Assembly (NCBI GenBank): GCA_963841475.1
Contig: CAWJCT010000001.1
Coordinates: 613,052 to 677,051 of the forward strand
Length of the DNA stretch: 64,000 nt
Reading direction: 5' to 3'
From: an uncultured delta proteobacterium
GTDB taxonomy: Bacteria > Desulfobacterota > Desulfobaccia > Desulfobaccales > 0-14-0-80-60-11
Part shown: positions 8,702 to 64,000 of the stretch, in pieces
Position numbering within the stretch: position 1 is the stretch's first letter
Layout of the letters: each line of letters starts with the position of its first letter
The notes under the pieces: generated by a model
Database searches by the model: none
The model's input: only the letters and a program-made list of their open reading frames with translations
Told to the model about the DNA's origin: nothing
Position numbers and translations under genes: made by a program

Positions 8702-8733
8702 GGGCGGACCGGCGAGTCCGGCCTTATTTTTTG
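8702..8733. terminator. GC-rich hairpin abutting the pirin stop (T-run on + strand)
   Basis: GGGCGGAC-cggcga-GTCCGGCC followed by TTATTTTTT. The core is shared with the GGGCGGAC..GTCCGCCC repeats. Confidence 0.4.
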
Positions 8734-9636: not shown

Positions 9637-9929
9637 GGTGGTCCTCCTACGAGTCTCGGGGGGCATAGGGAGGCAGCCGCGGCCCGAACTTGACGGGATG
9701 CGCCGTCTTTGCGGTTGCCTGGTCCCCGAATCGATGTACCCAATATAAGACCGGTTGGTTAATAAATCAAAGACCGGGCAAAAGAAAATTCCGACGATAT
9801 GGCCGATAAAGAAAAAGGAAACAAGCCCTTACCGAAAAGGCTCTTATCCGGACCTCCCCAAGCCCATTTTTTTGACAAAAAATCTCACCGGCCCCTTGTG
9901 TTTTTGGCAAGGATGATTAATATGATAAT

Positions 9930-10295: not shown

Positions 10296-10485
10296 CAGCC
10301 CCTGGCCTTATCCCACCGCTTAGAGCCCTCAGGTATCGCACCATGACCAGGGGGGTTAGATGACCTGTCGATAATCCCCACTAAATCACCTTTTAAAAAA
10401 GGGGGGAATTACAACCCCCGGCCTTCAGGGGAGGGCTGTTTTTTATACCCCGGAGACCTCCATTTTGAGCAAAAATTTTGATAAA

Positions 10486-30407: not shown

Positions 30408-30494
30408 AAATCCTCCTTTCAGGGGGGTGGACGTTGATCATCATGCCAAGAATCCTGATTCAGGGCATTCTATTCTGCTTGAGACCGCGTTGAC

Positions 30495-31827
30495 CTACCG
30501 GGAAGTTCTCCCGGCCTGGACCGTCACCTCCCGGCCATGACATTTCTTGAACTTGCGGCCGCTGCCGCAGGGGCAGGGGTCATTGCGGCCGGTTTTGGCC
30601 GGCGCCGGGACCGGCCTGCCAGCATCCTCGGCGAGAACCTGCATGACCTGCGCCGCCGGGTAACCACGGCGCAGCAGACCGGCCATGATCTTCAGGGGAT
30701 GGTCGACGTGCTGGAAGAAGGCCCGGTAACCGAGGCACAGGTAGTTCAGCCCCGGCTCCCCATCCGGGGCGGTGAGAAACCGATTCTTGGGACATTCACC
30801 CTTACAGGCAAATCCCACCTCGCATTCCCGGCAATAACGGGGCAGCTTCTCCAACTTGGCGCGGCCAAAAGTGTGCTGCTGGTCGGAGCCTGCCAGGTCG
30901 ATCATGTGGTCTTGCCCGATGTTGCCCAGGAGGTGCTTGGGCTCAACAAAATGGTCGCAGGAATATAGATCGCCGTTGTGCTCCAAAGCGAGTCCATGAC
31001 CGCAGGTGGCATCGAAGACGCACATGCCGGAAGAAGGCAGGCCCAGCCAGTTTCTCACCGTGGCCTCGAAGGTCTGGACGAACACCCGCCCGACGTCATG
31101 CCGGACCCATTCGTCAAAAATAGTGATCAGAAAATTACCGAACTGTCCCGGCGTCACCGAGCGGTCCGAAACGGTAGTTCCTTCCTGACAGAGAGAGACC
31201 CCGGCGTCGTTGAGCCGCTCGATGGCCGGGATGAATTGCATCCAGGGAGCGCCGGCTTCGTCCCGGAGAAACCGGTAGACCTCCAGGGGATGATCAGCGT
31301 TGAGCCGGTTAACGGTGGTCAGGATATTGTATTCTACCTCATGCTTCTGCAGCAGCCGGAGGCCCTGCATTACCCGGTCAAAGGTCGGCCTGCCGCGCTT
31401 GTCCACCCGGTGGGCATCGTGCAGTGCGCCAGGCCCGTCGATACTGATCCCGATGAGAAAGCCGTGCTCCCGGAAGAACTCGCACCAATCGTCATTGAGG
31501 AGCGTGCCGTTGGTTTGCATGGTGTTCTCGAAGACCATGCCCGGCCGCTGATACTGTTGCTGGAATTCCAGGGCCCGCCGGTAGAAGTCGAGGCCCATCA
31601 GGGTCGGTTCTCCACCCTGCCAGGCCACCGTCACCCGGTCAGCACTGTGGGATTCGATGAGTTGGCGGATATAGTGTCTCCAACACCGCCTCACTCATGC
31701 GAAAGTGACTGCCGGGATAGAGCTGTTCTTTGTTCAGGAAAAAGCAATAGGAGCAGTTCAGGTTGCACGTCGCCCCGGTGGGTTTGGCCAGCACGTGGAT
31801 GCGCGGCGGTATTTTTTTGTCGGCCAT
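30495..31827 (-). pseudogene. Anaerobic sulfatase-maturating enzyme (radical SAM/SPASM) with a C-terminal SEC-C motif, one frameshift
   Basis: HVLAKPTGATCNLNCSYCFF (CX3CX2C), WQGGEPTL, SPASM cysteines CRECEVGFACKGECPKN, tail NDPCPCGSGRKFKKCHG. The shift is near 31680. Confidence 0.85.
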
Positions 31828-49575: not shown

Positions 49576-50553
49576 ATGGAACTGTTATTTCGTCCCCGGC
49601 GCTTGAGACGGCGGGAACCCCTGCGGCGCATGGTGCGGGAGACGCACCTGCGCCCCGAAGATTTCATCTACCCCATGTTTGCGGCCCCGGGCAGCCGGGT
49701 GCGCCAGGAAGTGCCGTCCATGCCCGGCGTGGCCCGCCTGTCCGCCGACCTGCTGGTGGAGGAGGCCAAAGCTGCCCTGGATGTGGGGGTGCCCGCGGTT
49801 CTCCTCTTCGGACTGCCGGTCAAGAAAGACGACACCGGTTCCGAGGCCGCCTCCCCCAAGGGCGCGGTGCAGCAGGCGGTCAGACAGCTCAAGAAAAAGC
49901 TTTCCGAACTGGTGGTGATCACTGACGTTTGTCTGTGCGGCTATACCTCTCACGGCCACTGCGGCTTGCTGTCCGGCCAGGAGGTGGACAACGACACCAC
50001 CTTGGAGGTCCTGGGGCAGGTGGCGTTATCTCACGCCGAGGCCGGGGCCGACATGGTGGCGCCGTCCGACATGATGGACGGCAGGGTAGGGGCCATCCGG
50101 GAGGCCCTGGACGAGCGGGGCTTCGAGATGGTGCCCATCATGTCCTACGCGGTTAAATACGCCTCCGCCTTCTACGGGCCTTTCCGGGACGCGGCGGAGT
50201 CCGCCCCGGCCTTCGGGGACCGGCGGGCCTACCAGATGGACCCGGCCAACATCCGGGAAGCTCTGCGGGAAGCCGCCCTGGACGTGGAGGAGGGGGCCGA
50301 TCTCCTCATGGTCAAGCCCGCCCTGCCGTACCTGGACGTCATCGCCCAGCTGGCCGCCGAGTTCGAACTGCCCCTGGCCGCCTACCAGGTGAGCGGCGAA
50401 TACGCCATGATCAAGGCCGCCGCGGCTAACGGCTGGCTGGATGAGACCGCGGTGATGCTGGAGTCGCTCCTGGCCATCAAGCGCGCCGGCGCCGACTTGA
50501 TCCTCACTTATTTCGCCAAACAGGCGGCCCAGGTACTGGCCAAACAGGGTTAG
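49576..50553 (+). CDS. hemB: Porphobilinogen synthase (delta-aminolevulinate dehydratase)
   Basis: RPRRLRR, Zn site [12 protein letters not shown], active-site [10 protein letters not shown]. 325 aa. Confidence 0.95.
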
Positions 50554-50570
50554 GGAACCGGAGGTAAGAG

Positions 50571-51704
50571 ATGTTCGGCCATCGTGTGAAACTGTTTAAA
50601 CTCCTCGGGTTCGAGGTGCGCATCGATGCGAGTTGGATCGTCATCGCGGTGCTGGTCACCTGGTCCCTGGCCAAAGGGGCCTTTCCTTCCTGGTATCCGA
50701 ATCTTACCCCGGAGACCTACTGGATCATGGGGGTGGTGGGGGCCCTGGGGCTCTTCGTCTCCATCGTGGCCCATGAGTTCTGCCATTCCCTGGTGGCCCG
50801 GAAGTTCGGCATGGCCATGAAGGGCATCACCCTGTTCATCTTCGGCGGCGTGGCGGAGATGGGGGAGGAGCCGCCTACTGCCAAAGCCGAATTCATGATG
50901 GCCATCGCCGGCCCCCTGTCCAGTCTGGCGATTGGCGGCTGCTGTTACCTGATCTACCTTTTGGGGTTGCAGAGCCATTGGCCCACCCCGGTCAATGCCG
51001 TCAACTATTACCTCTTCTACATCAACGTCATCCTGGCGGCCTTCAACCTCCTGCCGGCCTTCCCCCTGGACGGCGGCCGGGTGCTGCGCTCCATCCTCTG
51101 GGGCGCCAAGGGCAACATGCGCTGGGCCACCCGGGTGTCCTCCTCCATCGGCTCGGCCTTCGGCCTCGGCCTCATCTTCCTGGGCGTTATCCGGTTCATC
51201 AGCCACGACATCATCGGCGGGGTGTGGATGTTCCTCATCGGCATGTTCCTGAGGAACGCGGCCCAGACGTCATATCAGCAGCTCCTGGTGCGCAAGGCCC
51301 TGGAGGGCGAACCGGTGAGCCGCTTTATGAACGCCCACCCGGTGACCGTGCCGGATTCCCTCACCGTGGCCCAACTGGTGGACGACTATATCTATAAATA
51401 TCATTATAAAATGTTTCCGGTCATGGCCGGGGAGAAGCTGGCGGGCTGCATCACCACCCGGCAGGTGAAGGAGATTCCCCGGGAGGCGTGGGAGCGGGAG
51501 ACCATCCGGGAAGCGGCCAGCCCCTGCTCGCCGGAAAATACCATCTCGCCCGGGACCGACGCCATCAAGGCCCTGGCCATGATGAACCAGAGCGGGGTCA
51601 GCCGGCTGCTGGTGGTGGAGAAGGGCCGCCTGGTGGGACTGGTCTCCTTAAAAGACCTGCTGGATTTCTTCTCTCTCAAGGTGGAACTGGAAGAGCAGGA
51701 TTGA
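50571..51704 (+). CDS. Site-2 protease family (M50) metalloprotease with a C-terminal CBS pair
   Basis: HEFCHSLVA (HExxH), NLLPAFPLDGGRV, then two CBS-like repeats. Confidence 0.85.
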   Translation: MFGHRVKLFKLLGFEVRIDASWIVIAVLVTWSLAKGAFPSWYPNLTPETYWIMGVVGALGLFVSIVAHEFCHSLVARKFGMAMKGITLFIFGGVAEMGEEPPTAKAEFMMAIAGPLSSLAIGGCCYLIYLLGLQSHWPTPVNAVNYYLFYINVILAAFNLLPAFPLDGGRVLRSILWGAKGNMRWATRVSSSIGSAFGLGLIFLGVIRFISHDIIGGVWMFLIGMFLRNAAQTSYQQLLVRKALEGEPVSRFMNAHPVTVPDSLTVAQLVDDYIYKYHYKMFPVMAGEKLAGCITTRQVKEIPREAWERETIREAASPCSPENTISPGTDAIKALAMMNQSGVSRLLVVEKGRLVGLVSLKDLLDFFSLKVELEEQD

Positions 51705-51747
51705 TCGAAGGTTGAGACCTCCGGGAAAAGCTCGGGTGAAATATAGT

Positions 51748-51808
51748 GTAGGGGGACACCCGCGTGTGCCCCTTTGGAGGGCGGACACGCAGGTCCGCCC
51801 CTACAAAA
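51748..51808. repeat. Family B double-hairpin repeat
   Basis: TGTAGGGGGACACCCGCGTGTGCCCCTTTGGAGGGCGGACACGCAGGTCCGCCCCTACAAAAG, between convergent genes. Confidence 0.8.
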
Positions 51809-51878
51809 GATAGACTACCTGCATGGGCGCAATTCGGTCTCCGGCTGTTGAAGCAAGGAATAAACCTGGAATCCTCAC

Positions 51879-52664
51879 CTAAAGCAGCTTCCTCAACGTT
51901 TCCTTAAACTCCTGCACCTCATCCTGCACGCCCGCCAGGATTTCTTTATAACGGTAAAAATCCAGCACCCGGATATTGGTCAGGGCCGGCTTGACGTAGA
52001 TGTCCGGCGGGGAGAGTTCCTTCTTGGCCGCCACTATGGAGGCCTGCATTATCTGGAAAGTGGACAGGATACTCTCTACCATGTTGGGGACCGGGTCCCC
52101 CGGGGCATAGGTCTTCTCGCCGGAGACATCAATGGCAATGGTGAGATCACACTCATCGCGGAGGAGGTCATAAGGCAGGGGGTTCACCGCGCCGCCATCG
52201 ACGAGAACCGTGTCATTGAGGAGCACCGGTTCGAAAACTGCCGGCATGGCCAGAGAGGCCCGGATGGCGGTGATGAGGTTGCCGCGGTCGAATACCACCG
52301 GGCGGCGGTCCCAAAAATTCGTGGCCACTACTTTCAAAGGGATCTCAGTCTCCTCGAAGGTGCGGACCGGAATCTCCCGGGAGAGAAAATTTTCCACGGC
52401 TTTGCCGGTGAAAATCGCTGACTGGCTCAGGATGGAGAAGTCCAGGACGATCTTGTAGAGGTCACGGAAGCCGATGTCCTGGAGCAGTTGCGCCAGTCGG
52501 TCCCCGGAGACCCCGGCGGCGTAAAAGCCCCCGATGACGGCTCCGATGCTGGTACCGGCGATGACTGCCGGCCGCACTCCCAAATCGTCCAGGGCCTGGA
52601 GAAAGGCTATGTGGCTGAGACCCTTGGCCCCACCGGCCCCCAGCGCTACTCCGATTCTTTTCAT
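51879..52664 (-). CDS. Patatin-like phospholipase
   Basis: GAGGAKG oxyanion motif, GTSIG nucleophile elbow, VDGGAV aspartate motif. Confidence 0.85.
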   Translation of the reverse strand: MKRIGVALGAGGAKGLSHIAFLQALDDLGVRPAVIAGTSIGAVIGGFYAAGVSGDRLAQLLQDIGFRDLYKIVLDFSILSQSAIFTGKAVENFLSREIPVRTFEETEIPLKVVATNFWDRRPVVFDRGNLITAIRASLAMPAVFEPVLLNDTVLVDGGAVNPLPYDLLRDECDLTIAIDVSGEKTYAPGDPVPNMVESILSTFQIMQASIVAAKKELSPPDIYVKPALTNIRVLDFYRYKEILAGVQDEVQEFKETLRKLL

Positions 52665-52671
52665 GGACTTT

Positions 52672-54420
52672 TCAGAACCTCCGGTCAGGTTGCTGGTTCA
52701 GGCAGGTTAGTGAATCCTGGGACAGGCCGCACCAGCGCCCCCTGGCGGCAGGAAAGGCAAACACAGCCCCAGGCCGCCGCGCCGCAGTTTCCGCATAGAG
52801 ATTACCCAGGGGGTGGAGGCGCAGTAAATAGGTCCCCTGGGGGTAGAATATGACTTCCAGCAGGGCCCCGGACACCCCCGGCCGGTTCTGGTCAAAGATA
52901 AAATTGCCCAGGGAGAAGGCCAGACACTGCTTGCGGTCGCCGGTGAGAGCCCCGGCCCGGTGGGGATGGCTGCCGATGATGAGTTCGACGCCTTTGGCGG
53001 CGAGCCTGGCCGCCAGGGCTTGTTCCCGGGGACCGGGCACCGCCCTGAACTCCTCGCCCCAGTGCAGGAAGGCGAACCGGGGTTTGTCCGGTTTGAGACC
53101 GTCGAGCCGGTCCAAGTCGGTCTCCCTCAGCAAGGCCCGGACAGGTTCTTGGCGGTTGTCCAGGTCGGTGAAGGCGGCCAATTGGAACGGCCCGAGATCC
53201 TTGACGGCGCCATTTTCCAGCACGATGATGCCGGCATCAGTAAGGAGATGCTGCATGGTGCGGCAGGCAGGATTACCGAAGTCATGGCTGTGATTGTTGG
53301 CCAGGCTCACCGCCACCACGTTGAGGTCCTTGAGGACATCCAGGCTTAGCGGGGCGGCCATGCACAACCTGAGGGGGCCGGGGTTAGCCGGGCACTGGGC
53401 CATCATGACGCCCTCCAGGTTGACGATGAGGGGGGCGCCGCCCGTGAGTTGCCTGACGCGGTTGACCAGGCTGTCCCGCCACGGCCGCCGGGCCAATTTC
53501 GCGGCCAGGTAGCGGCCAAAGAAGGTATCGCCCGCGAAGAAGAACCTTTGGACCGCGCTTATGGGGAGGTTTTCCGGGCTATAGACCTGGACGAGGTAGC
53601 TGGTGGTCGACTTAAGGGGCTGGGCCGTATATTCCTGGGAGTTGCGGGAAGCCACCACCGCACATCGGGCCTGATACATGTGTTTCTGAAGCCGGAGTTG
53701 GAGGTATTGGGCTCCCCGGGAATCCAGGTGCTGCGGTTGGGTGAGACCGATGACCCCGCCGGGGTCCCCGGCGCTCAGGACCCGGAGGGTTTCCTGGTCA
53801 AACTGCCGGGCCTGGGGCCAGGGAAGGTAGTGGGAAAAGTCGGTGCTCTGAAGCAGGAGGGTGTCGCCCGTCAGGAGAGGGGCCAGGGTTTGGGCCAGGG
53901 AATCCCACTGGGCGGGCTGGCTATCCCGGTGAATGGCCACGGCCACGATCCGGGCCCGAGGGAAGTAATGCGCCACAAAAGGCAGAAGCGCCCTGACGCC
54001 GTGTTCATGGGAGAAGAGATTGGACACCGAGACCAGGGGGTTTTCCCGGAGGCGGGCGACGGCGTCGGCGTCGATCCTCACCTCGCCCAGTACCGTCAGA
54101 AAGTTACGGATGGAGACCGCAAAAGGCGTCCGGCTCCGGCTAAAGTGGTCGGGGCTGAGGATAATGATCCGCCGGTAATCCTGGCCGGAGGCCAGGGCAA
54201 AGGCGCTGGCGATGAGGTTGGCGGCCAGGAGGTGATGCGGCACGGTCAGACCGGTGATGCGCTGGGCCAGGGGTGCGGTCTTGGTTTGGCGAATAGCGCT
54301 CAGAAAGGGCTGCGCCTCGGGGTAAAAAAGCGGCAGAGCACCCCCCGGGGTTGCGGCGTCCTGGCCGCAGCCGCACAAAAGGTGCCCCAGGAGGAGGCAG
54401 AATGTGGCGAGGCGGCGCAT
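52672..54420 (-). CDS. Lipoprotein fusing a MEMO-like (AmmeMemoRadiSam protein B-type) domain to a CapA/PGA_cap metallophosphatase domain
   Basis: Lipobox LLCGC. N-half: TVPHHLLAA...IIILSPDHF...SHEHGVRALLPFV. C-half: FFFAGDTFFGR...LIVNLEG...SLANNHSHDFG...FLHWGEE. The stop is 7 nt before the patatin start. Confidence 0.65.
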   Translation of the reverse strand: MRRLATFCLLLGHLLCGCGQDAATPGGALPLFYPEAQPFLSAIRQTKTAPLAQRITGLTVPHHLLAANLIASAFALASGQDYRRIIILSPDHFSRSRTPFAVSIRNFLTVLGEVRIDADAVARLRENPLVSVSNLFSHEHGVRALLPFVAHYFPRARIVAVAIHRDSQPAQWDSLAQTLAPLLTGDTLLLQSTDFSHYLPWPQARQFDQETLRVLSAGDPGGVIGLTQPQHLDSRGAQYLQLRLQKHMYQARCAVVASRNSQEYTAQPLKSTTSYLVQVYSPENLPISAVQRFFFAGDTFFGRYLAAKLARRPWRDSLVNRVRQLTGGAPLIVNLEGVMMAQCPANPGPLRLCMAAPLSLDVLKDLNVVAVSLANNHSHDFGNPACRTMQHLLTDAGIIVLENGAVKDLGPFQLAAFTDLDNRQEPVRALLRETDLDRLDGLKPDKPRFAFLHWGEEFRAVPGPREQALAARLAAKGVELIIGSHPHRAGALTGDRKQCLAFSLGNFIFDQNRPGVSGALLEVIFYPQGTYLLRLHPLGNLYAETAARRPGAVFAFPAARGRWCGLSQDSLTCLNQQPDRRF

Positions 54421-55157
54421 TTATATGACCATTACGGCATCATACCATAAATTCCCGGGGGAAAGGCGCCGAGGTTGGGCGTCAAACTATCATCCGCAGT
54501 ATTTTCACCTCTGACCTGGTCCAGGCGCAACCGGGGCCGAGGCCTGCTGGTGAAGATTTGGTTCGTCATTCTTTTTCACCCGGCGGATCGTAGGTTCACC
54601 TCGGGAATATTCTCAAGCAGTTTCGATCCGGAGGAGTGATGAGTTTCTTATAGTTCATTAATTTTGTTAAAATAAATCAAACGTTAGTTAAATAATTAAT
54701 GACGTTACTGAAAAATAGAGTTCAGAGTTGCTTACAATACCTGCCGATGGTCGGTGGAGGTCGCATCCACCTTTACTTTGGCAGACTAGGAGCGGATAAC
54801 GCCGGCTCCAAGCCATGGCCGGCAAGACCAAGATGTACGGGCGCACCCGTGGGCTGGTAGGTATAACTTGCAGGGCTGATTAGATATTTCTGGTTTTACT
54901 CAAAACCTAATCGTTTGGGGAGGTTAATTCTGGAGCAAGCGTTGTGATGCACCGGCCTTGGGCGACTCTATTTGGGGGGGCAGAAATTTTAGTTAATCTC
55001 AGAATAAAATAATTGCTTTTCAAACAAGTGAATGTTAATTTTCTTTTTGAAAGGTAGGTCTTACTTGATGAAGGGACTTTTTGAGGGGTAAGATCGGGGA
55101 AAGAGAAAAAGATTTGGTGTGTCAGTGAGGCGTTAACCTCTGAAAGGAGAATTTGTG

Positions 55158-55448
55158 ATGACCAGAAAAGGGCCCAACCAAGAGCCGGAAGAAGCCCCGA
55201 AAGATGAGGGCTTGACCAGGCGCACGGCCATTAAGCGGATCGCCGCCGGTCTGGCGGGTGCAGGCATCGTCGTCGTCGCCGGGATTTTCGGCCAGGGGCA
55301 GGACCGCCAGGTCTATGAAAAAGGGAAGTACGGCGACTCAGCCAGTGAACCCTATGGCGATTCCGCGCCGAAGAATAGAAATGAGATGGCGACGCCGCCT
55401 TACGGTGATTCGGCCAAGCTGCCCTACAGTGATAAGGCGCCAAATTAA
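55158..55448 (+). CDS. Candidate RiPP precursor: Tat-like signal/anchor plus a C-terminal region with P-Y-G-D-S-A repeats
   Basis: AAGGAG RBS 8 nt before the ATG. LTRRTAIKRIAAGLAGAGIVVVAG, then KYGDSASEPYGDSAPKNRNEMATPPYGDSAKLPYSDKAPN. The three YGDSA units use different synonymous codons. Confidence 0.6.
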   Translation: MTRKGPNQEPEEAPKDEGLTRRTAIKRIAAGLAGAGIVVVAGIFGQGQDRQVYEKGKYGDSASEPYGDSAPKNRNEMATPPYGDSAKLPYSDKAPN

Positions 55449-55454
55449 TCAGGC

Positions 55455-55562
55455 GTGAAACGCCGCCCGTATCTGAAATACCCTGCCGGCCGTTACCGCC
55501 ATTGGTGGTTCGGCTTTTTCCGTGGTGATTTCCGCCTGGTTGGCGGTCCCGCCCTGCTGTAA
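55455..55562 (+). CDS. Possible 35-aa aromatic/basic mini-ORF (speculative)
   Basis: A GTG 6 nt after the precursor stop opens VKRRPYLKYPAGRYRHWWFGFFRGDFRLVGGPALL. There is no clear RBS. Third-position GC is consistent with coding. Confidence 0.15.
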   Translation: MKRRPYLKYPAGRYRHWWFGFFRGDFRLVGGPALL

Positions 55563-55577
55563 CGCCTGCCCTGGGGA

Positions 55578-56618
55578 ATGACGACCATGGCGACCATTCT
55601 GCTGAACTCCCCCTGCCACCGAGCCCGCCCCCATGGCAGCGCCGCTAACGAGACCTACGGCCCCACGGGGGCCCAGTCGCTGTCTTGGGAAAATCTCATC
55701 TACATCGCGGATTTTCTCCGGGCCTCCGGCCAATTCCGGGTATCTCTCGGAGGAGGGGAGCCGATTATCCACCCGGAGTGCGTCGACTTCATCCTCTACC
55801 TGCTGGACCGCGGTTTCGACGTGACCCTGTGCACCGATGGTATCCTGAGCCCGCTCCGCCTGAAGGAGTTTAGGCAGCATCTCACCGGGGTCCCCATCGA
55901 GGGGTTCCAGGTGCTGTGCCATTTCCCTGATCCGGTTCAGCCTCCGGGTTTGCCCCGGGAAACGCCAGGGCTGCACCGTTTCCTGGCGGTCATGGGACCC
56001 TGGACCCAGGGGGGCTTTACTATCCATGGGCCGGATTTCAGCCTCGATTTTCTGTTCGAGGCCATAAGCCGGTTCGGCCTGAAGCGCCAGGTGCGCCTCA
56101 GCCTGGCCCATCCTGCCCCCGGCAGCCAGGCCGGGTTCATCGAGGCTGGGGAGATGCGGCGGGTCGTTGAGGGGCTCAATGAGCACCGGCAGCTATTCGA
56201 GAGCCAGCGCGTCCGCCCGGACCTCGACTGCGGCTGGCCCCTCTGCACGTTCAGCGACGGAGAACTCGGATGGCTCCACCGCCTCCGGGGCCAGGCCCCG
56301 GGCGGCTGCCGGCCTGCCTTCGCCATTGCGCCGGACATGACGGTGTCTTTCTGCCTGGCGCTGTCTCATTATCAGAGCACGTCCCTGTTCGAGTTCGATG
56401 ACCTGGAGCAGATCGACCGACATTTTTCCCGGCTGCAGGATAGAATCAAAGCGGAGGCCGCCGGCATCTATCCGGAATGCGATGGCTGCGCTTCCCGGGA
56501 AAACGGTGGCTGCAGCGGCGGGGGGCTGTGCCAGATTGTCAGTCGCAGCATGGGCCAGGCGCCCAGACGCGGCGCGGGGGTGGAGGATGGGGTTTCCCAG
56601 GATCGTCTGCCCGGATAG
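55578..56618 (+). CDS. Radical-SAM-fold/SPASM-type protein lacking the canonical CX3CX2C motif
   Basis: GGGEPIIHPE SAM-binding motif. SPASM-like cysteines (DLDCGWPLC, MTVSFC, CDGCASRENGGCSGGGLC). The N-terminus reads ILLNSPCHRARPHGS where CX3CX2C is expected. Confidence 0.55.
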   Translation: MTTMATILLNSPCHRARPHGSAANETYGPTGAQSLSWENLIYIADFLRASGQFRVSLGGGEPIIHPECVDFILYLLDRGFDVTLCTDGILSPLRLKEFRQHLTGVPIEGFQVLCHFPDPVQPPGLPRETPGLHRFLAVMGPWTQGGFTIHGPDFSLDFLFEAISRFGLKRQVRLSLAHPAPGSQAGFIEAGEMRRVVEGLNEHRQLFESQRVRPDLDCGWPLCTFSDGELGWLHRLRGQAPGGCRPAFAIAPDMTVSFCLALSHYQSTSLFEFDDLEQIDRHFSRLQDRIKAEAAGIYPECDGCASRENGGCSGGGLCQIVSRSMGQAPRRGAGVEDGVSQDRLPG

Positions 56619-57387
56619 CGAGATTTTACTCCAAAGCTTTACGGGGCTGTCGGTGGCTCTGAGGCTGAACCATTGCCAGGGCATCGCGGCCTGTGCGGAA
56701 CACGTCCTGAAGTCCGGCAACACCCTTTTCTGTGTCATCGTGGAATCGGACCGTCCGCTGGCGGATATGGAATTCGATGACTGCCACCGGGGCATCCCCC
56801 TGGCGGTCATGGCCCCTGCCCTGGGGCGTTTCCGGGACCTGGCCCGGCATCTTGACCGGCTGCGCAGCCTCAACCTGCGGGTTTATTTTCCCGGCGACCA
56901 GCCCGGAAACCTGAAAGGTTTGCGCATCTTGTCGTCAGTGGGAATCCACTGCTGCGCCGATTTCCGGCAAGGCGGCACAGATTGGGAGGCCCTGGCCGAT
57001 TTGGCCACCTACGCGGTGCTGGAACGGACGCCCCACGCCGCCATGGAACCCTTCGCCTTCATGGCCGCGCACTACCCTGCGTCCCATCGCCTCGACTGGG
57101 GGCGGGTCTGCTTCGATGATCCCCGGCATTTTCTCCATCTGGACGGCAACGGCCGGGTCGCACTTTCCCAGGCGGAATTGGCCGAGGGTCGGTTTGTGGC
57201 CCACAGCCTGGATGAAATAGGGGCGCCAGCGGAATTTCCGCCGATCCGGGAGCGGCTGCAGTCCTGGAGACGCTACTTCGTTGACAGCCACCCCTGCGCC
57301 TTCTGCGGCGGGTGGCGGCTCTGTCTGGGAAATTCTCCCGGGATCCCGCCGCCAGGGGCGGATGTTCCGCATTCTTTCAGGAAATGA
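56587..57387 (+). CDS. Hypothetical protein with a SPASM/twitch-like C-terminus
   Basis: It overlaps the upstream gene by 32 nt. FLHLDGNGRVALS, then HPCAFCGGWRLCLG. A +1 shift after CLG would give KFSRDPAARGGCSAFFQEMIDL... ending at TGA 57451-57453, overlapping the next ATG. Confidence 0.45.
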   Translation: MGFPRIVCPDSEILLQSFTGLSVALRLNHCQGIAACAEHVLKSGNTLFCVIVESDRPLADMEFDDCHRGIPLAVMAPALGRFRDLARHLDRLRSLNLRVYFPGDQPGNLKGLRILSSVGIHCCADFRQGGTDWEALADLATYAVLERTPHAAMEPFAFMAAHYPASHRLDWGRVCFDDPRHFLHLDGNGRVALSQAELAEGRFVAHSLDEIGAPAEFPPIRERLQSWRRYFVDSHPCAFCGGWRLCLGNSPGIPPPGADVPHSFRK

Positions 57388-57442
57388 TCGACCTGGTGCG
57401 CCAGTCTATGGCGTTGCAGGCGGCCCCGGAGGAGCGCCGCAT

Positions 57443-58572
57443 ATGGCAACCGTGATCTTCAAACCCACGGAGGCCTGTAATTCCCGGTGCATATACTGCG
57501 AAGTGGTGAAGAAAACCCGCGGTCCGCGGCGGATGACCTTCAAGATCCTGGAATTATTTTTCCAGCGAGTCAATGAGTTCCTGGTAGAACGGCCGCAGGA
57601 AGAAATGGAAATCATCTGGCACGGCGGCGAACCTCTCCTCCTGGGCCCCGGCTATTTTGAACGGGCTCTGATTTATCAGGAAAAGCATTGCGCCGGGACC
57701 GCCGGCCGCATCGAGCACTCTATTCAGAGCAACCTCACCCTGCTATCCAGGGAATTCCTCGATCCCCTGAGAAGACTGGGGATCACCACCATCGGTTCCA
57801 GTTATGATCCCGTCGCCAACATTCGGGGCCTGGGGGCGAACCGGGACTGGAGGGAGTATAACCGTCGTTTCCTGGATGCCATCGGACTCCTGGAAGACGA
57901 AGGGTTTAATTGGGGCGTGGTCTACGTGGTGACCCGGCAGTCCCTGGCCAGGCCGGTGGAGATCTTCAATTACCTGACCAACATGTCACCCCGGCGCGGC
58001 CTCAGGTTCAACCCCCTTCTGGCGTATGGCGAGGGACTGGAGCACCTCAAGATTTCCCCGGCCGAGTATGCGGAGTTTCTGGGGACCATATTCCCGGTGT
58101 GGTGGCAGCATCGGGCTGATTTCGGCCACGTCGAGCCCTTGGTTTCTCTGGTCCAGAAACTGGTTGGCGAGGGCAAGGCATTGACCTGCACCGAAGCCGG
58201 GGCCTGCGCTTCCAGCCACCTCAGTGTGCGTCCCGACGGCAGCACCTCCCATTGCGGCCGTTCCGCGGATTGGGGGTTGCTGGATTACGGCTCCATCCGG
58301 GACCGATCATTCTCGCAGATTTTCGCCGATCCCCAGAGGGAGGTCCTCCAGCGGCGGGGTGCCGTCCTGCCGGAAACCGAGTGCGGGACTGCCGGGTTTG
58401 GGATTTCTGCCACGGCGGCTGCCCCCTGGATGCCTGGTATACCGGGGGGTCGTTTCTTCATAAAACCGGCTGGTGCCTGGCCCAGAAAGCATTGATCGAA
58501 AAATACATCGAACCCCTGGTCGTCGGGGGCAACGCCGGCTCGGTCGAGAGTCACAGGGCAACTCTGCCATGA
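57443..58572 (+). pseudogene. Radical SAM/SPASM peptide-maturase-like enzyme (anSME family), one frameshift
   Basis: GGAGGAG RBS. MATVIFKPTEACNSRCIYCEV (CX3CX2C), WHGGEPLL, and after a shift near 58385, CRDCRVWDFCHGGCPLDA (SPASM). Confidence 0.75.
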
Positions 58573-58585
58573 GAGGGGAATAACC

Positions 58586-61015
58586 ATGGGCCCAAAAGGG
58601 CTGTTAGAAGTGGTGTTAGGGGTGGTCGTGGTGTTTGGTTTCTGCCAGGCCGGTTGGACCGGTAATGGCGACATGAACCGGCTGGCCAAGGAAGGCAAGC
58701 AGGCGTATGACGCGGCCAATTACCTCGAGGCCCTGGCCAAGTGGCAACAGGGACTGGAACTGGCGGAAAAATCAATGAATCAACCGGCGGCGGCGGAATT
58801 TTTAGCCAATCTGGGCCTGGCCTATGATGCCCTGGACCAGTATGAGCGGGCTTTGGAAAATGCCCAGGCGGCCCTGGCCATCCACCGGGACCTCAAGGAC
58901 CGCCGGAGCGAAGCGCATGACCGGAATGACCTGGGTGTGGTCTATCGTCACCTGAGCCAGTATGACCGGGCCCTGGAGAATCACCAGCAAGCCCTGGCTA
59001 TCCACCGGGAGTTCAAGGACCTCCGGTTTGAGGGGAATGAACTGATCAACCTGGGCGAGGTGTACTATGACATCGGCCAGTATGAACAGGCCCTGGAATG
59101 TTTCCAGCAGGCCCTGGACATCTTCCGGAAGATCAAGGGCCGCCGGGGCGAGGGGCAGGCCCTGAGCGACATGGACGGGGTGTGCCGTGACTTGGGCCGG
59201 TATGACCAGGCCCTGAAGACCTTACAGGAGAGCCTGAAGATTGGCCAGGAAGTGGGCCATCCGGAAAACCTCTGGAGGGCGCAGCGAGCCCTGGGAGCTG
59301 TGGAGGTCAAACTGGCCAGATATGACCAGGCCATCGATCATTACCAGCAGGCCCTGGATACCATTGAAGGCCTGCGGGCCGGCCTGGACAGCAAGGAAAC
59401 CAAGTCCACCTACATGAAGAACAAGCTCTTTGTCTATGACGAATTAATCGAGCTGCTCAGGTCCCTGCACGGCAAAGATCCGGGTAAAGGCTATGACCGG
59501 GGCGCCCTGGAGATTTTTGAGCGCAAGCAAGGGCGCCTCTTCCTGGAAGAGATGGGCCAGAGCGGCGCCCGGAACTTCGCCGGATTGCCGGAGCAGGTGA
59601 AAAGCCGGGAAAGCGCTTTAGAAAGCCGCCTGGATAAGCTCCAGGCCGACCTGGTTAAGGAGCGGTCCCGGCCCACGGTGGACCAGGCGCGCCACCAAGC
59701 CCTGGAAACCGAGTTGCAGCGGGCCAGGGCAGACTTCCAGGCCCTGAAAGCCGAACTGCAAGCCGGCTACCCCGACTACTTTGCCCTCAAATATCCTCAA
59801 CCCGCCAAGCTGGCCGAACTCCGGACGAAGGTCCTGCAATCCGGGGAGGTCATCATGGTGTACGGGGTCATGCAAGATAAGACCTGCCTGTGGGTAATCG
59901 GCCCGGAGGTCTTCCAGCTCCATACCATACCCGTGGGGGAGGAAGACCTGGGCCGCAAGGTGACTGCCTACCGGCGCCAGGTTTTGAAGACCGAGGGGGA
60001 GGGTGGCGAAGCGGCGGCCCCCCAGGGCCAGGCCGAAAAAGAGCGGGAGCGGCTCCACCATGAATTGTATAGTCTGCTCTTCCCCGCCCCGGTCCCTTCG
60101 GCCCTGCCCGCCGGTTGCCGCCTGTATATTGTCCCCACCGGCCCCTTATATGGCCTGCCTTTCGAGGCCATGGAAACCCAGGCCCCGGGGCAGCCGCCCC
60201 ACTATCTGATAGAGGATTATGCCATCGCCTACCTGTCCTCGGCGTCGCTGCTCAAAACCCTCCGGGAAGCCCAGGCCCGGAAGCAGACCCGACCTGCTTA
60301 TCCCCTCCTGGCCTTTGCCAACCCGCGCTATGGAAAGGTCTCGGGGGACCAGGATAAGGACAAGAAAAGGTCGGTGCGCGATTTGCAAACCCGAGCCTAT
60401 AGAGCGATCCTGGGGGGTACTTTCGAGGAACTGCAGGAAACCGAAGATGAGGCCCGGGCCATCAAAGAGGTGCTCAAGGCCCCGGACCGGAGCAACCCCC
60501 TCCAGGTCAAGGAAGCAGCCTCCCGGAGCACGGTCTTAAACCTGAACCACACCGCCAGGCTGGCGGCTTACCACTACCTGGTGTTTGCCTGTCATGGGGT
60601 CTTGCCCGGTCAAGTGGACCGGGTGGTGCAACCGGCCCTGGTCCTTTCCCATCCCGAAAAGGACGGCTACCTGACCATGGGGGATGTCTTCAGCCTGCAG
60701 CTCAATGCCGATCTGGTATCCCTGTCCGCCTGCAACACCGGGCGAGGCGCCCAGGTCAAGGGCGAAGGGGTGGCGGGCCTGACCCGGGCCTTTATGTACG
60801 CCGGGACCCCGGCGGTGGCGGTCACCCTGTGGTCGATAGAGTCGGAATCCGCCAAGGAGCTGAATGTGGGCATGTACCGCTGCCTCAGCCAGAAGTACGG
60901 CCGGGCCGCGGCCCTGCAGCACATTAAGCTGGCCCTGCTCCGGGGTGAGAAAGGCAAGCAATACTGCGACCCCTTCTTCTGGGCCCCCTTGGTGGTTTTC
61001 GGGGATGGCCAGTAA
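58586..61015 (+). CDS. TPR-repeat CHAT-domain (caspase-like) protease with an N-terminal hydrophobic anchor
   Basis: N-terminal LLEVVLGVVVVFGFC. At least 5 TPR units with 120-bp DNA periodicity (58838-59400). CHAT dyad FACHG and LSACNTG. It starts 14 nt after the rSAM stop. Confidence 0.8.
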   Translation: MGPKGLLEVVLGVVVVFGFCQAGWTGNGDMNRLAKEGKQAYDAANYLEALAKWQQGLELAEKSMNQPAAAEFLANLGLAYDALDQYERALENAQAALAIHRDLKDRRSEAHDRNDLGVVYRHLSQYDRALENHQQALAIHREFKDLRFEGNELINLGEVYYDIGQYEQALECFQQALDIFRKIKGRRGEGQALSDMDGVCRDLGRYDQALKTLQESLKIGQEVGHPENLWRAQRALGAVEVKLARYDQAIDHYQQALDTIEGLRAGLDSKETKSTYMKNKLFVYDELIELLRSLHGKDPGKGYDRGALEIFERKQGRLFLEEMGQSGARNFAGLPEQVKSRESALESRLDKLQADLVKERSRPTVDQARHQALETELQRARADFQALKAELQAGYPDYFALKYPQPAKLAELRTKVLQSGEVIMVYGVMQDKTCLWVIGPEVFQLHTIPVGEEDLGRKVTAYRRQVLKTEGEGGEAAAPQGQAEKERERLHHELYSLLFPAPVPSALPAGCRLYIVPTGPLYGLPFEAMETQAPGQPPHYLIEDYAIAYLSSASLLKTLREAQARKQTRPAYPLLAFANPRYGKVSGDQDKDKKRSVRDLQTRAYRAILGGTFEELQETEDEARAIKEVLKAPDRSNPLQVKEAASRSTVLNLNHTARLAAYHYLVFACHGVLPGQVDRVVQPALVLSHPEKDGYLTMGDVFSLQLNADLVSLSACNTGRGAQVKGEGVAGLTRAFMYAGTPAVAVTLWSIESESAKELNVGMYRCLSQKYGRAAALQHIKLALLRGEKGKQYCDPFFWAPLVVFGDGQ

Positions 61016-61064
61016 GATAGGCGGCTGCCACACCGCCATGGGCCGGGCTTTTGGTGACCCGCGG

Positions 61065-61592
61065 CTAATCCAGGTTGTCCTCATCCTCCGGGATATATTC
61101 CGGCCAATCTCCAGTAGCCGTAGACCCCGGCGTCGGCCAGGTCTCAAGATACTTGCGAAAATTGGTTTGCAGGAAGAAAATGGACGCCGGCGGCAGGGGG
61201 CATTGGGACAGGAGCCAGCCCGAGGTCGCTGGTTTAATGGGTAGGCTCTGGTGACCCCCCGGGGCCGGGCAACTGGCCAGCTGCAGGCGGGAATTTCTGA
61301 GGTTGTTGGCAGCTGGGCGTAAATCCCTGGGGGGGGCCTGCCGGGCACAGGGTTTTGCCGGATCGTCCCAGGGGTTTTCCCGGCCGGGCGCCGGCAACTG
61401 GTGATCCGGCGGTCCGGGATGCTGTCGGCTTGCTACTGCCGCCCCCGGAGGGGAGAGTGGGGAAACGTCCGGCCCCCCGCCGGATTGCCCCCGGGCGGTT
61501 GCGGGAAGCAGCAGCAGGGTGATCAGTCCCAGGAGGATAAAGCCGGGGCCGGCGGCCCCCCACAGAGATTGTTCTCGGCACATTATGGTCAT
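61065..61592 (-). CDS. Pro-rich secreted hypothetical protein
   Basis: 175-aa ORF with a signal-like GFILLGLITLLLLPATARG. No recognisable domain. High GC makes a spurious ORF possible. Confidence 0.3.
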   Translation of the reverse strand: MTIMCREQSLWGAAGPGFILLGLITLLLLPATARGQSGGGPDVSPLSPPGAAVASRQHPGPPDHQLPAPGRENPWDDPAKPCARQAPPRDLRPAANNLRNSRLQLASCPAPGGHQSLPIKPATSGWLLSQCPLPPASIFFLQTNFRKYLETWPTPGSTATGDWPEYIPEDEDNLD

Positions 61593-61832
61593 AGTTGAGC
61601 TCCAGGGCTAAGATTTACTAGCCCTATCGGCGGGACTTAAAATTAACTTTAGCCAGGTTCAAATTTAGTGAAGCGAAGGAGGCTGGTGGCGGCGTGGCGG
61701 CTGGGATGAGGTGATCTCAACCCCCGCTGGGTGCGGAAGGGGATAACCGCACTACTCTTATACCGATTGAGTCTGCATGGAGTTCAGCCTGACGCCTGAT
61801 AAACGTCCATCATGAGGACGTTTCGAGAGCGA

Positions 61833-61943
61833 CCTGAGACCTCTGTTCAAGTCCCTTTAACCTGTCATTCTGAGGGAGTGGAGCGACCGAAGAATCTCAT
61901 AAGTGCGAGAAAAGAGGAGATCCTTCGCTCTGCTCAGGATGAC
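61833..61943. repeat. 111-nt repeat element (family A)
   Basis: CCTGAGACCTCTGTTCAAGTCCCTTTAACCT + GTCATTCTGAGGGAGTGGAGCGACCGAAGAATCTCATAA...GAGATCCTTCGCTCTGCTCAGGATGAC. Reverse-complement match to 11713-11823. Confidence 0.8.
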
Positions 61944-62036
61944 AAAATGGCTTTGTGCGGATCTCTCAATCGGTTATCAGGCGGTTCGGGAGCGTCCGGA
62001 GAGACCGGCAGGTCAGGCCTGACGTCGGAAAAACTC

Positions 62037-62065
62037 TTGACATATTTGCTGGAATTTATTATACA
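62037..62065 (+). promoter_or_regulatory. Sigma70-like promoter for tRNA-Gly
   Basis: TTGACA (62037-62042), 17-nt spacer, TATACA (62060-62065), 17 nt before the tRNA 5' end. Confidence 0.5.
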
Positions 62066-62082
62066 TACTCGTTGAGCATTGA

Positions 62083-62158
62083 GCGGGCATAGCTCAGCTG
62101 GTAGAGTACAAGCTTCCCAAGCTTGGTGTCGCGGGTTCGAATCCCGTTGCCCGCTCCA
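62083..62158 (+). tRNA. tRNA-Gly (anticodon CCC)
   Basis: GCGGGCA/TGCCCGC acceptor stem, AGCTCAGCTGGTAGAGT D-arm, anticodon loop TTCCCAA, GGTTCGAATCC T-arm, encoded CCA. Confidence 0.95.
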
Positions 62159-62431
62159 GCCCCGGGGGCGAGACGGTTGGCGATAGAGGCCAACCGGTCC
62201 GCCGGGGAGACCCGCTTCCCCCATCGCGGTTACCGGCAGTAAGGGGCAGGATGGCCGGCTGACTTTGAGGGTGGAGATAAGTAGTTGCTCTGGGGCGCCC
62301 CGAGATTAATTATTCTTGGAATTTCCCGGAAGTGGGCCGCGGCCCGCTTTTTTTATTGGCCAGGCGGAGCCCGGGAGAAGAATTTGGGAGCAGGACAAAC
62401 CGTGCCAGGAGAAACACAACCGAAGGCAGCC

Positions 62432-62902
62432 ATGATCTCCCGGCTGGAGGAGTTAATCCAGCCCCTGGTGGAATCCCAGGGAGCGGATCTGGTGGAGCTG
62501 CAATACGGCATGCCCAGGCGGGGCCGGGGCGTCCTGAGGCTGTTTGTGGACCGGACCGGGGGCATCAGTATAGAAGAACTGGCCCGCATCAACCGGATGG
62601 TGGGCGGCCTGTTGGAAGTTCATGACGTCATTCCCGGGGCTTACACCCTGGAGGTGTCGTCGCCGGGCCTGACCCGGGCCTTGAAGACGCCCAAGGATTA
62701 TCAGCGATACGTGGGCCGGTTGGTGCGGGTGACCACCCGGGCCCCCTGGGAAGGCCGCCAGGTGCACAGCGGCATCCTCCAGGGCCTGGAAGACGACCAG
62801 GTGAGTCTCAAGGAGGGAGAGAGCGTCGTCTCTATCCCCTTGAGTGAGATCGCCCGGGCCCGGCTGGATCTAGACCTGAAAAAAATGAGCAAGGAGGGCT
62901 AG
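62432..62902 (+). CDS. rimP: Ribosome maturation factor RimP
   Basis: MISRLEELIQPLVESQGADLVELQY...LRLFVDR...YTLEVSSPGLTRALK. Immediately upstream of nusA. Confidence 0.9.
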   Translation: MISRLEELIQPLVESQGADLVELQYGMPRRGRGVLRLFVDRTGGISIEELARINRMVGGLLEVHDVIPGAYTLEVSSPGLTRALKTPKDYQRYVGRLVRVTTRAPWEGRQVHSGILQGLEDDQVSLKEGESVVSIPLSEIARARLDLDLKKMSKEG

Positions 62903-62910
62903 CACCTCTC

Positions 62911-64000
62911 ATGAATCTGGAATTGAAACGGATCATTGACCAGGTAAGCCGCGACAAGGGAATCGATAAGGACCTGCTCGTGGGGGCCATCAAGGACGCC
63001 ATCCGTTCGGCCGCCAAGAAGAAGCACGGGCCGCGCCTGGAAATCGAGGTGGAATACCGGGACGAAACCGGGGAGATCGAGGTCTTTCAATATAAGGAAG
63101 TAGTGGCCGAGGTCAAGGACCCGGGCCAGGAGATTTCCCTGGAAGAGGGCCGTCTACAGGACCCGGAATGCGAGGTGGGCGACAGCCTGGGCTTCAAGAT
63201 GGACGCCTCGGCGTTTGGGCGGATTGCGGCCCAGTCGGCCAAGCAGGTGATCATGCAGCGCATGAAGGACGCCGAGCGGGACCTGGTGTATGAAGACTAC
63301 AAGGACCGCAAAGGCGACATCATGAACGGCATCGTGCAGCGCCTGGACCCCGACGGCATCATCGTCAATTTGGGGCGTACCGAGGCCCTGCTGCCGCCCA
63401 TGGAGCAGGTCCCCCGGGAGATTTACCACAAAGGCGAGCGCATTCGGGCTTATGTCCTGGACGTGAAGCGCCAGACCCGGGGACCCCAGATCATCTTGTC
63501 CCGGACCCATCCCCAGTTCCTGATGGCCCTGTTCAGCGCCGAGGTGCCGGAGATTTCCGAAGGCATCGTCCAGGTTCTGGGCTGCGCCCGGGAGCCTGGC
63601 AGCCGTTCCAAGATTGCGGTATCCTCCCGGGACTCGGACGTGGACCCGGTGGGGGCCTGCGTCGGCATGAAAGGGGCCCGGGTCCAAAATATCGTCCAGG
63701 AGTTGAGGGGCGAGAAGATCGACATCATCCCCTGGCATCCCGACCCGGCCAAGTTTGCTACCAATGCCCTGGCGCCGGCCCAGGTAAGCCGCATCGTCCT
63801 GAGCAAGGAAAGCCAGACCATGGAGGTTATCGTGCCGGATGACCAGTTGTCCCTGGCCATCGGCAAGCGGGGCCAGAATGTGCGGCTGGCCTCCCGGTTG
63901 GTGGGATGGAAAATTGACGTCAAGAGTGAATCCAAGTACTCGAAATCCTTGAAAGAAGGTTATCTCTCGCTGTTGAGCATCCCCGGGGTCGGGGAAATCA
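62911..64000 (+). CDS. nusA: Transcription termination/antitermination factor NusA (3' partial, runs off the window)
   Basis: MNLELKRIIDQVSRDKGIDKDLLVGAIKDAIRSAAKK, S1 domain GDIMNGIVQRLDPDGIIVNLG, KH domain GACVGMKGARVQNIVQELRGEKIDII. There is no stop before 64000. Confidence 0.9.
   Translation, partial: MNLELKRIIDQVSRDKGIDKDLLVGAIKDAIRSAAKKKHGPRLEIEVEYRDETGEIEVFQYKEVVAEVKDPGQEISLEEGRLQDPECEVGDSLGFKMDASAFGRIAAQSAKQVIMQRMKDAERDLVYEDYKDRKGDIMNGIVQRLDPDGIIVNLGRTEALLPPMEQVPREIYHKGERIRAYVLDVKRQTRGPQIILSRTHPQFLMALFSAEVPEISEGIVQVLGCAREPGSRSKIAVSSRDSDVDPVGACVGMKGARVQNIVQELRGEKIDIIPWHPDPAKFATNALAPAQVSRIVLSKESQTMEVIVPDDQLSLAIGKRGQNVRLASRLVGWKIDVKSESKYSKSLKEGYLSLLSIPGVGEI

Follow-up and report, generated by a model that had tools for sequence, protein, structure and literature searches.

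A candidate RiPP-like maturation cassette with radical SAM-fold proteins and a TPR-CHAT protease in an uncultured Desulfobaccales bacterium

The window analysed here is a stretch of 64,000 nucleotides (64 kb) from an uncultured Desulfobaccales bacterium (contig CAWJCT010000001.1, positions 613,052 to 677,051), and our subject is a five-gene operon within it. In order, the operon encodes a short peptide with repeated tyrosine motifs, three proteins related to radical S-adenosylmethionine enzymes (radical SAM or rSAM; here g2, g3 and g4), and g5, a protein that joins tetratricopeptide repeats (TPR) to a caspase-like CHAT domain (Table 1). A preliminary description, made from the sequence without database searches, had proposed an undescribed system resembling those that produce RiPPs (ribosomally synthesised and post-translationally modified peptides). 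Our analysis largely bears out this RiPP-like reading. However, the operon is one member of a much wider and uncharacterised family, most of whose members have no CHAT gene, and the copy in the window is imperfect as sequenced. That the operon is a peptide-maturation cassette is, in our judgement, very likely.

In the open reading frame (ORF) listing of the window all five frames lie on the plus strand. They follow an AT-rich spacer, and both the ORF list and the GC profile agree with the arrangement given in the preliminary description. The spacer had been called a 700-bp region free of ORFs; it is AT-rich, measures 737 bp and contains no more than three ORFs, of 52-54 aa. The genes had also been described as separated by 14 nt or less, or overlapping, from the second gene onward. 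This is true for g4 and g5, which are 13 nt apart, whereas 55 nt separate g3 from g4 as printed. After repair of a missing base, discussed below, g3 overlaps the start of g4 by 13 nt, as it does in every close relative examined.

Table 1. Features of the operon and its flanking elements, in positions of the window.
Feature	Position	Strand	Basis and remarks
Precursor peptide, 96 aa	55158..55448	+	ORF; leader motif, hydrophobic stretch and Y-x-D core
g2, rSAM-fold protein, 346 aa, Cys-rich C-terminal half	55578..56618	+	Homologues start at ATG 55587
g3, rSAM/SPASM-like fold (predicted) without CxxxCxxC	56587..57455	+	Missing base at 57330; printed frame stops at 57387
g4, radical SAM/SPASM enzyme with CNSRCIYC	57443..58572	+	1130 nt, not a multiple of 3; base missing at 58384
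g5, TPR-CHAT protein, 809 aa, N-terminal hydrophobic signal or anchor	58586..61015	+	Pfam CHAT 1.2e-60 and several TPR families
AT-rich spacer, presumed promoter or regulatory region	54421..55157		GC 0.45-0.47 against 0.60-0.65 in both flanks
Hairpin followed by U-run, possible partial terminator	55495..55527	+	Terminator-like scan, ACCGCCATTGGTGGT then TCGGCTTTTT; weak evidence

The peptide gene is preceded by an AGGAG ribosome-binding site about 10 nt 5' of its start, with a GTG at 55155 as an alternative start codon. Its product opens with a polar N-terminus that leads into L-T-R-R-T-A-I-K-R-I-A (RRTAIKRIA is coded at 55218-55244), continues with a hydrophobic stretch of 18 residues rich in Gly, Ala and Val (AGLAGAGIVVVAGIF), and ends in a core of four units, KYGDSA, PYGDSA, PYGDSA and PYSDKA, which start at 55329, 55353, 55401 and 55425. 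The pattern Y[GSTRA]D[SAK][AVIGP] matches four times in the peptide and twice elsewhere in the six-frame translation of the entire window. Repeats had been noted before and are present, but the unit is better written Y-x-D than P-Y-G-D-S-A, as the statistics of the core tyrosines indicate. Within the clade of loci that carry the CHAT gene, Asp occupies position +2 of 21 of the 23 core Tyr (z = 12). The 51 cores collected outside this clade consist to 28% of Tyr, which recurs with a period of 3 (z = 17), and show Asn, Ser or Asp enriched at position +2 of Tyr (z = 10-20). This spacing is the aromatic-x-x pattern of cyclophane precursors; core motifs of the aromatic-X-X type, which mark the precursors of triceptides, occur in the CHAT-clade cores and in the others alike. 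The peptide itself matches no curated family in Pfam or NCBIfam.

The leader had been described as belonging to the twin-arginine translocation (Tat) type. It does contain the RR motif and the hydrophobic region, and the Tat signal model TIGR01409 is its top match, but the score of 14.4 bits lies under the cut-off of 16.7. When the same model was applied to relatives, the peptide of locus L005 passed with 16.8 bits and two others reached 12.2. Many leaders outside the CHAT clade carry AxA directly before the core (AWA/G, AQA/A and ADA/Q, the slash marking the boundary), whereas the CHAT-clade leaders have none, which, as far as reading the sequences allows, fits the need for a dedicated protease in that clade. 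The Ser of YGDSAP was considered as a target of the kind used by anaerobic sulfatase-maturating enzymes (anSME; S-x-P) and was ruled out, this residue not being conserved among the peptides of the clade. Nor does the peptide hold a conserved sulfatase motif of the form (C/S)xPxR.

To place the operon among its relatives, 87 non-duplicate loci were gathered by searching species-representative genomes with a profile of g2 and by contig look-ups. Small genes on the same strand as the cassette were then compared with a strict leader pattern, R[RK]x[AS][ILMV][KRQ][RKNT][ILMF][AGS]. The loci span Thermodesulfobacteriota, Acidobacteriota, Nitrospirota, Bacteroidota, Elusimicrobiota, Spirochaetota, Ignavibacteriota, Planctomycetota and others, and all 80 of the 80 genome records are metagenome-assembled genomes of uncultured bacteria from soil, sediment, groundwater, peat and gut. 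The cassette family is widespread, uncharacterised and found only in uncultured anaerobes. Its three rSAM-fold genes stand side by side in the same orientation in 76 of the 87 loci, usually with overlaps of a few bases. At least 51 loci also contain small genes whose products combine the leader RRxA[ILM]KR[IM]A with a hydrophobic stretch and a core rich in Tyr; the peptides found number more than 60. A short precursor gene conserved beside modifying enzymes, the generic hallmark of a RiPP cluster, is therefore found in at least 51 of the 87 loci. The preliminary description had named the lack of such conservation, that is, homologues without similar peptides at their side, as what would speak against it, and these counts turned out in its favour. 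The family is also large: in a set of 1.84 billion representative proteins, g3 alone accounts for 396 clusters at 50% identity.

The usual fourth gene of the cassette encodes a GT9 (heptosyltransferase-family) protein, which follows g4 or is fused to it in 53 loci. Fusions of g4 and GT9 into a single polypeptide occur in several lineages, for example at 7001-8965 of L007 (P0058) and among other matches of about 650 aa. Seven loci (L015, L018, L027-L030 and L032) contain g2, g3 and GT9 only, without g4, at about 3900-9700 of their 15-kb stretches. In L015, L018, L027, L028, L030 and L032 these three genes lie directly 3' of lasso-peptide genes for a B2 protease (NF033537, 74 bits) and a cyclase that is Asn-synthase-like, a neighbourhood that ties the g2-g3-GT9 module to an established RiPP class. 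The peptides of L015, L018, L030 and L032 carry RREA[IML]K[RK]I[AS], no hydrophobic stretch, and a lasso-like core, T-A/GQGGDSKD-YGGYCIPV. Since these peptides retain the RR motif although no export is expected of them, the motif must be more than an export signal; comparison of these leaders indicates that g2 and g3 probably recognise it as a handle. A further conserved protein, about 400 aa long and marked by a DDDFF motif, is encoded at 287-1576 of L012 and, according to tblastn, in nine other loci (10 in total), in most of which it stands between the peptide gene and g2. It matches no Pfam or NCBIfam family and may be a further, glycosyltransferase-like tailoring enzyme.

Among the three rSAM-fold proteins of the operon, g4 is the one that retains the features of a radical enzyme. 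As printed, it is split into two ORFs in different frames, 57281-58495 with the rSAM part and 58252-58572 with the SPASM end. The reference for this and for a second missing base in the operon is L001, a related contig that is 96.6-97.7% identical over the main alignments. Compared with it, g4 lacks one C at 58384 (TGCCGGGAC becoming TGCGGGAC), between the two Cys of the SPASM CxxC. The repaired protein has 376 aa and is 99% identical to database protein P0001. The enzyme class given in the preliminary description, a canonical rSAM/SPASM enzyme at 57443-58572, therefore stands after repair, but the single open frame does not. The radical SAM domain is recognised by its CNSRCIYC motif and by Pfam PF04055 (53.9 bits against a cut-off of 29.5). 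The SPASM domain (CxxCx5Cx3C) is recognised only with the base at 58384 restored, by PF13186 (22.0 against 21.5) and TIGR04085 (37.5 against 27); as printed, its motif is divided between the two frames.

The best NCBIfam models for g4 are DynA (1.4e-39) and anSME (4.6e-36), followed by DarW, DarE and the cyclophane maturases AmcB, YhhB, FxsB and GrrM, and all of these matches remain far under their cut-offs. The darobactin and dynobactin maturases score 136.1 bits against 450 for DynA and 108.1-110.6 against 650 for DarE and DarW, the models of XyeB, GrrM/OscB, FxsB, YhhB and AmcB reach 36.6-84.2 against 310-450, and the anSME model TIGR03942 gives 124.7 against 349.45, so that g4 falls outside each of these families. 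Among structures in the Protein Data Bank (PDB), anSME 4k36 is the closest solved relative (7e-17) and ChlB 9gm3, a cyclophane synthase acting on a Tyr motif, follows with 8e-10. On these comparisons the nearest named relatives of g4 are anSME and a set of enzymes that join aromatic rings to beta-carbons. One could conclude from the closest structure and the second-best NCBIfam match that g4 simply is an anSME and that the peptide is irrelevant to it. However, its score stays at 124.7 bits where 349.45 are demanded, its conserved neighbours are the peptide, g2 and g3 and not sulfatases, and the window holds a genuine anSME elsewhere, encoded at 30495-31694 beside a sulfatase gene (together 28848-31694 on the minus strand) and scoring 431 bits against the same 349.45. 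We find an anSME function of g4 barely credible.

Different from g4, the middle protein g3 matches nothing in Pfam or NCBIfam. It too lacks a base relative to L001, one A at 57330 that shortens a run of four to three and cuts off the true C-terminus; repaired, the protein has 289 aa and ends in RIWQP. An AlphaFold2 model built from 35 homologues reached a pLDDT of 90 and a pTM of 0.88, and a Foldseek search with it returned CteB (5why) at rank 1 with probability 1.00 and TMq 0.51; the other rSAM/SPASM matches were PqqE (6c8v) at rank 3 (0.96) and SuiB (5v1q) at rank 12 (0.80). On the strength of this model, g3 is predicted to have an rSAM/SPASM-like fold that lacks the SAM cluster in every member of the family and keeps four invariant C-terminal Cys (237, 240, 246 and 260, in CxxCx5C...C). 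The earlier statement that the operon encodes three SPASM-type proteins thus holds at the level of the fold, as the matches of g3 to CteB, PqqE and SuiB illustrate.

The third member, g2, has lost ligands of its radical SAM cluster in this lineage, a feature that the preliminary description overlooked and that emerges from the alignment with other loci. The second and third Cys of CxxxCxxC are gone by substitution: the site reads CHRARPHG (C-HRA-R-PH-G) in the window, CHRYCPPC in L002 and C.R.CPYC in most other loci. Pfam Radical_SAM (PF04055) gives 26.4 bits against the cut-off of 29.5 and the remaining rSAM matches are weak and sub-threshold, so by motif and by profile the window copy lies outside the radical SAM superfamily. 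A compensating pair of indels behind the scrambled motif was considered and ruled out, both by the codon-for-codon DNA alignment with L002 and by the lack of a Cys codon at this place in any frame. CxxxCxxC is intact in 77 loci and degenerate only in the window, L089, L091 and L093, which together form a sub-branch of the CHAT clade. The remainder of the protein is well conserved, as GGEP and C218, C223, C244, C259, C301, C312 and C318 are invariant in 8 of 8 aligned sequences, C304 is kept in all of them but L093, and the window copy retains all eight C-terminal Cys. In each of the four motif-degenerate loci g2 is a full-length open frame with GGEP and the C-terminal Cys largely kept, which points to a retained role other than catalysis. 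We read this as a degenerate g2 that keeps a non-catalytic function, with g4 as the presumed sole radical enzyme of this lineage.

The condition of the window copy deserves attention, because the two single-base frameshifts, in g3 at 57330 and in g4 at 58384, had escaped the preliminary description. Both are 1-nt deletions in short base runs (A4 to A3 and CC to C) and they lie within 1.1 kb of each other. Together with the two missing cluster Cys of g2 and with L001, which is without 54484-56590, they could mean that the operon is a decaying relic here, the frameshifts being real, g2 already inactive as a catalyst and the locus in the process of disappearing. The wider pattern of indels argues otherwise. 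L001 shows about ten similar 1-nt differences that break genes intact in the window, and the genuine anSME at 30495-31694 is itself frameshifted near its start, with its CNLNCSYC region in another frame at about 31.7 kb. Taken with the positions in base runs, this pattern points to assembly error, which we consider the likely origin of the g3 and g4 frameshifts; the names of the records point to long-read metagenome assemblies. Moreover, the degenerate g2 is common to L089, L091 and L093, where it is full-length with its auxiliary Cys largely kept. A relic is for these reasons improbable. As to L001, the absent segment comprises 2107 bp with the spacer, the peptide gene and g2 (the gap lies at 7146-7148 of L001), while g3, g4 and the TPR-CHAT gene are kept; the cause is either a natural deletion or a collapse in the assembly. 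Elsewhere in the window, runs of short same-strand ORFs in different frames occur at 41639-43652, 0-3700 and 8000-10400, which suggests further single-base assembly indels.

The last gene of the operon is intact. Its product g5 scores 205.9 bits with the CHAT model PF12770, against a cut-off of 24, and contains both His670 (in VFACHG) and Cys716 (in LSACNTG) of the catalytic dyad, bearing out the TPR-CHAT protease that had been recognised at this position. The N-terminus is hydrophobic and reads as a Sec-type signal, orthologues showing ...CQVAKA/D and ...CQVAGA/E, and a sequence search of the PDB with g5 returned TPR proteins only and no CHAT relative. What could not be upheld is the notion of CHAT as a general partner of the system. 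A TPR-CHAT gene lies downstream of g4 in nine of the 87 loci, distributed over two phyla: seven are Desulfobaccales-like (the window, L001, L002, L051, L089, L091 and L093) and two belong to Nitrospirota (L037 and L038). GT9 is the usual partner, with the 53 loci given above; the two never co-occur among the 87 loci, and CHAT takes the GT9 slot. We therefore class CHAT as an accessory restricted to particular clades, not as a feature that defines the family.

This scarcity, along with the fact that no paper was found that describes a CHAT protease in RiPP maturation, might indicate that the TPR-CHAT protein is a neighbour with an unrelated function of its own. The geometry of the loci speaks for a connection: the gene shares its strand with g4 and follows it at a distance of 13 nt in the window and of about 70-130 nt in relatives, and its position has been kept in two phyla even though the CHAT domains of the Desulfobaccales-like and Nitrospirota lineages share only 34% identity. 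Furthermore, it sits in the exact slot of GT9 and is never found together with it. We therefore regard an unrelated neighbour as unlikely, albeit a serious alternative.

What the analysis shows directly is the set of genes, the conservation of the cassette together with its peptides, the statistics of the motifs, the folds and the lost cluster ligands. From these elements we infer the chemistry, the export route, the substrate of the protease and the biological role of the cassette as follows. The small gene would provide the substrate, and RRxAIKRIA would be the handle recognised by the rSAM-fold proteins, with the RR motif and the hydrophobic stretch doubling as a Tat export signal. In the cytoplasm, g4 would modify each Y-x-D unit. 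The most likely chemistry would be a C-C bond between the Tyr ring and the Asp beta-carbon, which would close a three-residue cyclophane and shift the mass by -2 Da per unit. Having no SAM cluster but keeping the Cys of auxiliary clusters, g2 (in this lineage) and g3 are expected to be non-catalytic partners, with a possible part in leader binding, as a scaffold or in electron relay. After crosslinking, the peptide would be exported via Tat. Because CHAT-clade leaders have no AxA signal-peptidase site, it would stay anchored in the membrane, from which the periplasmic TPR-CHAT protease would release it or where it would trim it. Taken as a whole, this sequence of RiPP-like maturation, crosslinking, Tat export and CHAT processing is our best reading, and we give it slightly better than an even chance. 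Export of the peptide through Tat is the more probable part, whereas Tyr-Asp cyclophane formation and the action of CHAT on the peptide are both put forward tentatively, at somewhat less than even.

Several observations weigh against this overall reading. The operon as printed has frameshifts in g3 and g4 and a g2 without its cluster, and L001, at about 97% identity, is without the spacer, the peptide gene and g2. The window peptide remains under the cut-off of the Tat model (14.4 against 16.7 bits), and the proposed chemistry rests on distant homology, g4 reaching 136 bits where DynA demands 450 and 66-84 where the models of the cyclophane families demand 310-445. About 90% of the loci have no CHAT gene, which makes it an accessory at most. 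TPR-CHAT genes are, in addition, common in these phyla, so that their adjacency to the cassette could be partly fortuitous.

A different outcome of the same pathway can also be envisaged, in which the product is not a released small natural product but a matured small envelope protein that remains periplasmic or membrane-anchored and works there, after the example of HxsA. The CHAT-clade leaders without an obvious signal-peptidase site agree with this, and conflict systems often contain CHAT and TPR domains. An additional argument comes from the parallel to the HXS system (HxsABCD), where a His-x-Ser repeat protein becomes a periplasmic antiphage effector through the action of two rSAM enzymes and a partner protein (PMC13128918). 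Here, two rSAM-fold enzymes and a third partner accompany a repeat-bearing substrate presumably bound for the periplasm. Direct comparison, however, yielded 48.4 bits with the HxsB model against a cut-off of 370 and no match to HxsD. The PADLOC defence models gave generic viperin-fold and TPR matches only, and no phage-defence genes are conserved around the cassette. We regard an envelope protein of this kind as unlikely.

Around the operon, few regulatory features stand out. A scan of 50000-64000 with Rfam (E <= 0.1) found a tRNA-Gly as its sole match and left the spacer empty, and the spacer has no match to the sigma-54 promoter consensus, whose window-wide matches are fewer than in shuffled sequences. 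An AT-rich motif at about 55006-55024, AAAATAATTGCTTTTCAAA, recurs 5' of the peptide genes in L002, L051 and L089, which is weak evidence. Within 55006-55050, about 110-150 nt upstream of the peptide start, AAAATAATTGCTTTTCAAA is associated with the inverted repeat TTTCAAA...TTTGAAA, and the element may serve as operator or promoter element. The intergenic region that separates the peptide gene from g2, where the possible terminator of Table 1 is located, shows no unusual stability when folded as a whole (z = -1.5). The tRNA-Gly (anticodon CCC) lies at 62083-62158, about 1.1 kb 3' of the CHAT gene, with a minus-strand ORF at 61065-61592 in between; this arrangement fits an end of the operon at g5. 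On the other side, the divergent neighbour at 52672-54420 on the minus strand encodes a fusion of 582 aa. One part of it is a Memo-like domain that matches TIGR04336 (AmmeMemoRadiSam system protein B) with 91 bits, and the second domain is annotated as PGA_cap on the related contig.

If the proposed pathway is true, a large untouched family of about 400 protein clusters at 50% identity joins the rSAM-modified peptides. It would be unusual in a leader that is enzyme handle and Tat signal at once, which would explain how bulky crosslinked or glycosylated peptides pass the membrane, and likewise in its obligatory pseudo-enzyme paralogues and its alternative finishing enzymes, GT9 or CHAT. CHAT would become the first such protease to be assigned to RiPP processing. 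The leader RRxA[ILM]KR[IM]A followed by a Tyr-rich core offers a signature for genome mining, and for experiments the intact L002 or L051 are better starting points than the window copy. That all of these traits come together in a new RiPP class, with a Tat signal as leader, a partly catalytic rSAM-fold trio, Tyr-to-Asp/Asn cyclophanes and, in one clade, release by CHAT, seems to us unlikely in this full form.

The literature agrees with the description of the system as new: there is no curated family for the peptide or for g3, and we found no paper on the cassette, on Tat-type leaders combined with rSAM maturases or on CHAT in RiPP processing, in a search that covered subscription journals thinly. 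Neither a survey of RiPPs in Bacteroidales (PMC10352776) nor a review of RiPP proteases (PMC10885120) mentions the cassette. Among known systems, the triceptide synthases (XyeB, GrrM/OscB, FxsB, YhhB, HaaB and ChlB) share with it an anSME-like rSAM/SPASM enzyme and repeated aromatic-x-x motifs, here Y-x-D, and ChlB works on a Tyr motif as well, YDR (PMC11499958). Some triceptide pathways also carry a TPR protein, and the TPR region of g5 matches HaaT (4e-23). They differ in that g4 is far under the cut-offs of their models, and in the Tat-like leader, the two obligatory rSAM-fold paralogues and the CHAT or GT9 accessory found here. Similarly, the maturases DarE, DarW and DynA provide the best NCBIfam models for g4; they, too, belong to the rSAM/SPASM class, and their action is to crosslink the aromatic side chains of short peptides. 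Here the scores are 108-136 bits against 450-650, the precursors are different and no ABC exporter is conserved beside the cassette. The comparison with anSME rests on the closest solved structure (4k36) and on the principle of a cytoplasmic radical enzyme that modifies its substrate before export, but g4 does not reach the cut-off, no sulfatase motif is present in the peptide and the true anSME-sulfatase pair is found elsewhere in the window. As for g5, Csx29 is the TPR-CHAT protease of type III-E CRISPR systems. Both place TPR repeats before a CHAT caspase-like domain, whereas g5 has a signal-like N-terminus, no CRISPR context and sequence matches in the PDB to TPR repeats only.

Bufferins, RiPPs modified by MNIO enzymes whose leader is a Sec signal peptide (PMC11626156), resemble the proposed pathway in using an export signal as leader and in yielding a modified peptide in the periplasm. 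Their enzyme is an MNIO and not an rSAM protein, their signal is Sec and not Tat-like, and the modified residue is Cys. HXS, finally, is similar in its two rSAM-fold enzymes with a third partner and, on our reading, in a repeat-bearing substrate that is N-terminally processed and ends in the periplasm. The operon does not belong to it, given the HxsB score quoted above, the lack of HxsC and HxsD matches and a peptide devoid of HxS repeats; the repeat and the architecture of the substrate differ, and g3 is an rSAM-like fold of about 289 aa where HxsD is small. In chemistry, the triceptide pathways and the darobactin and dynobactin maturases are closest to the cassette, and in architecture it is HXS.

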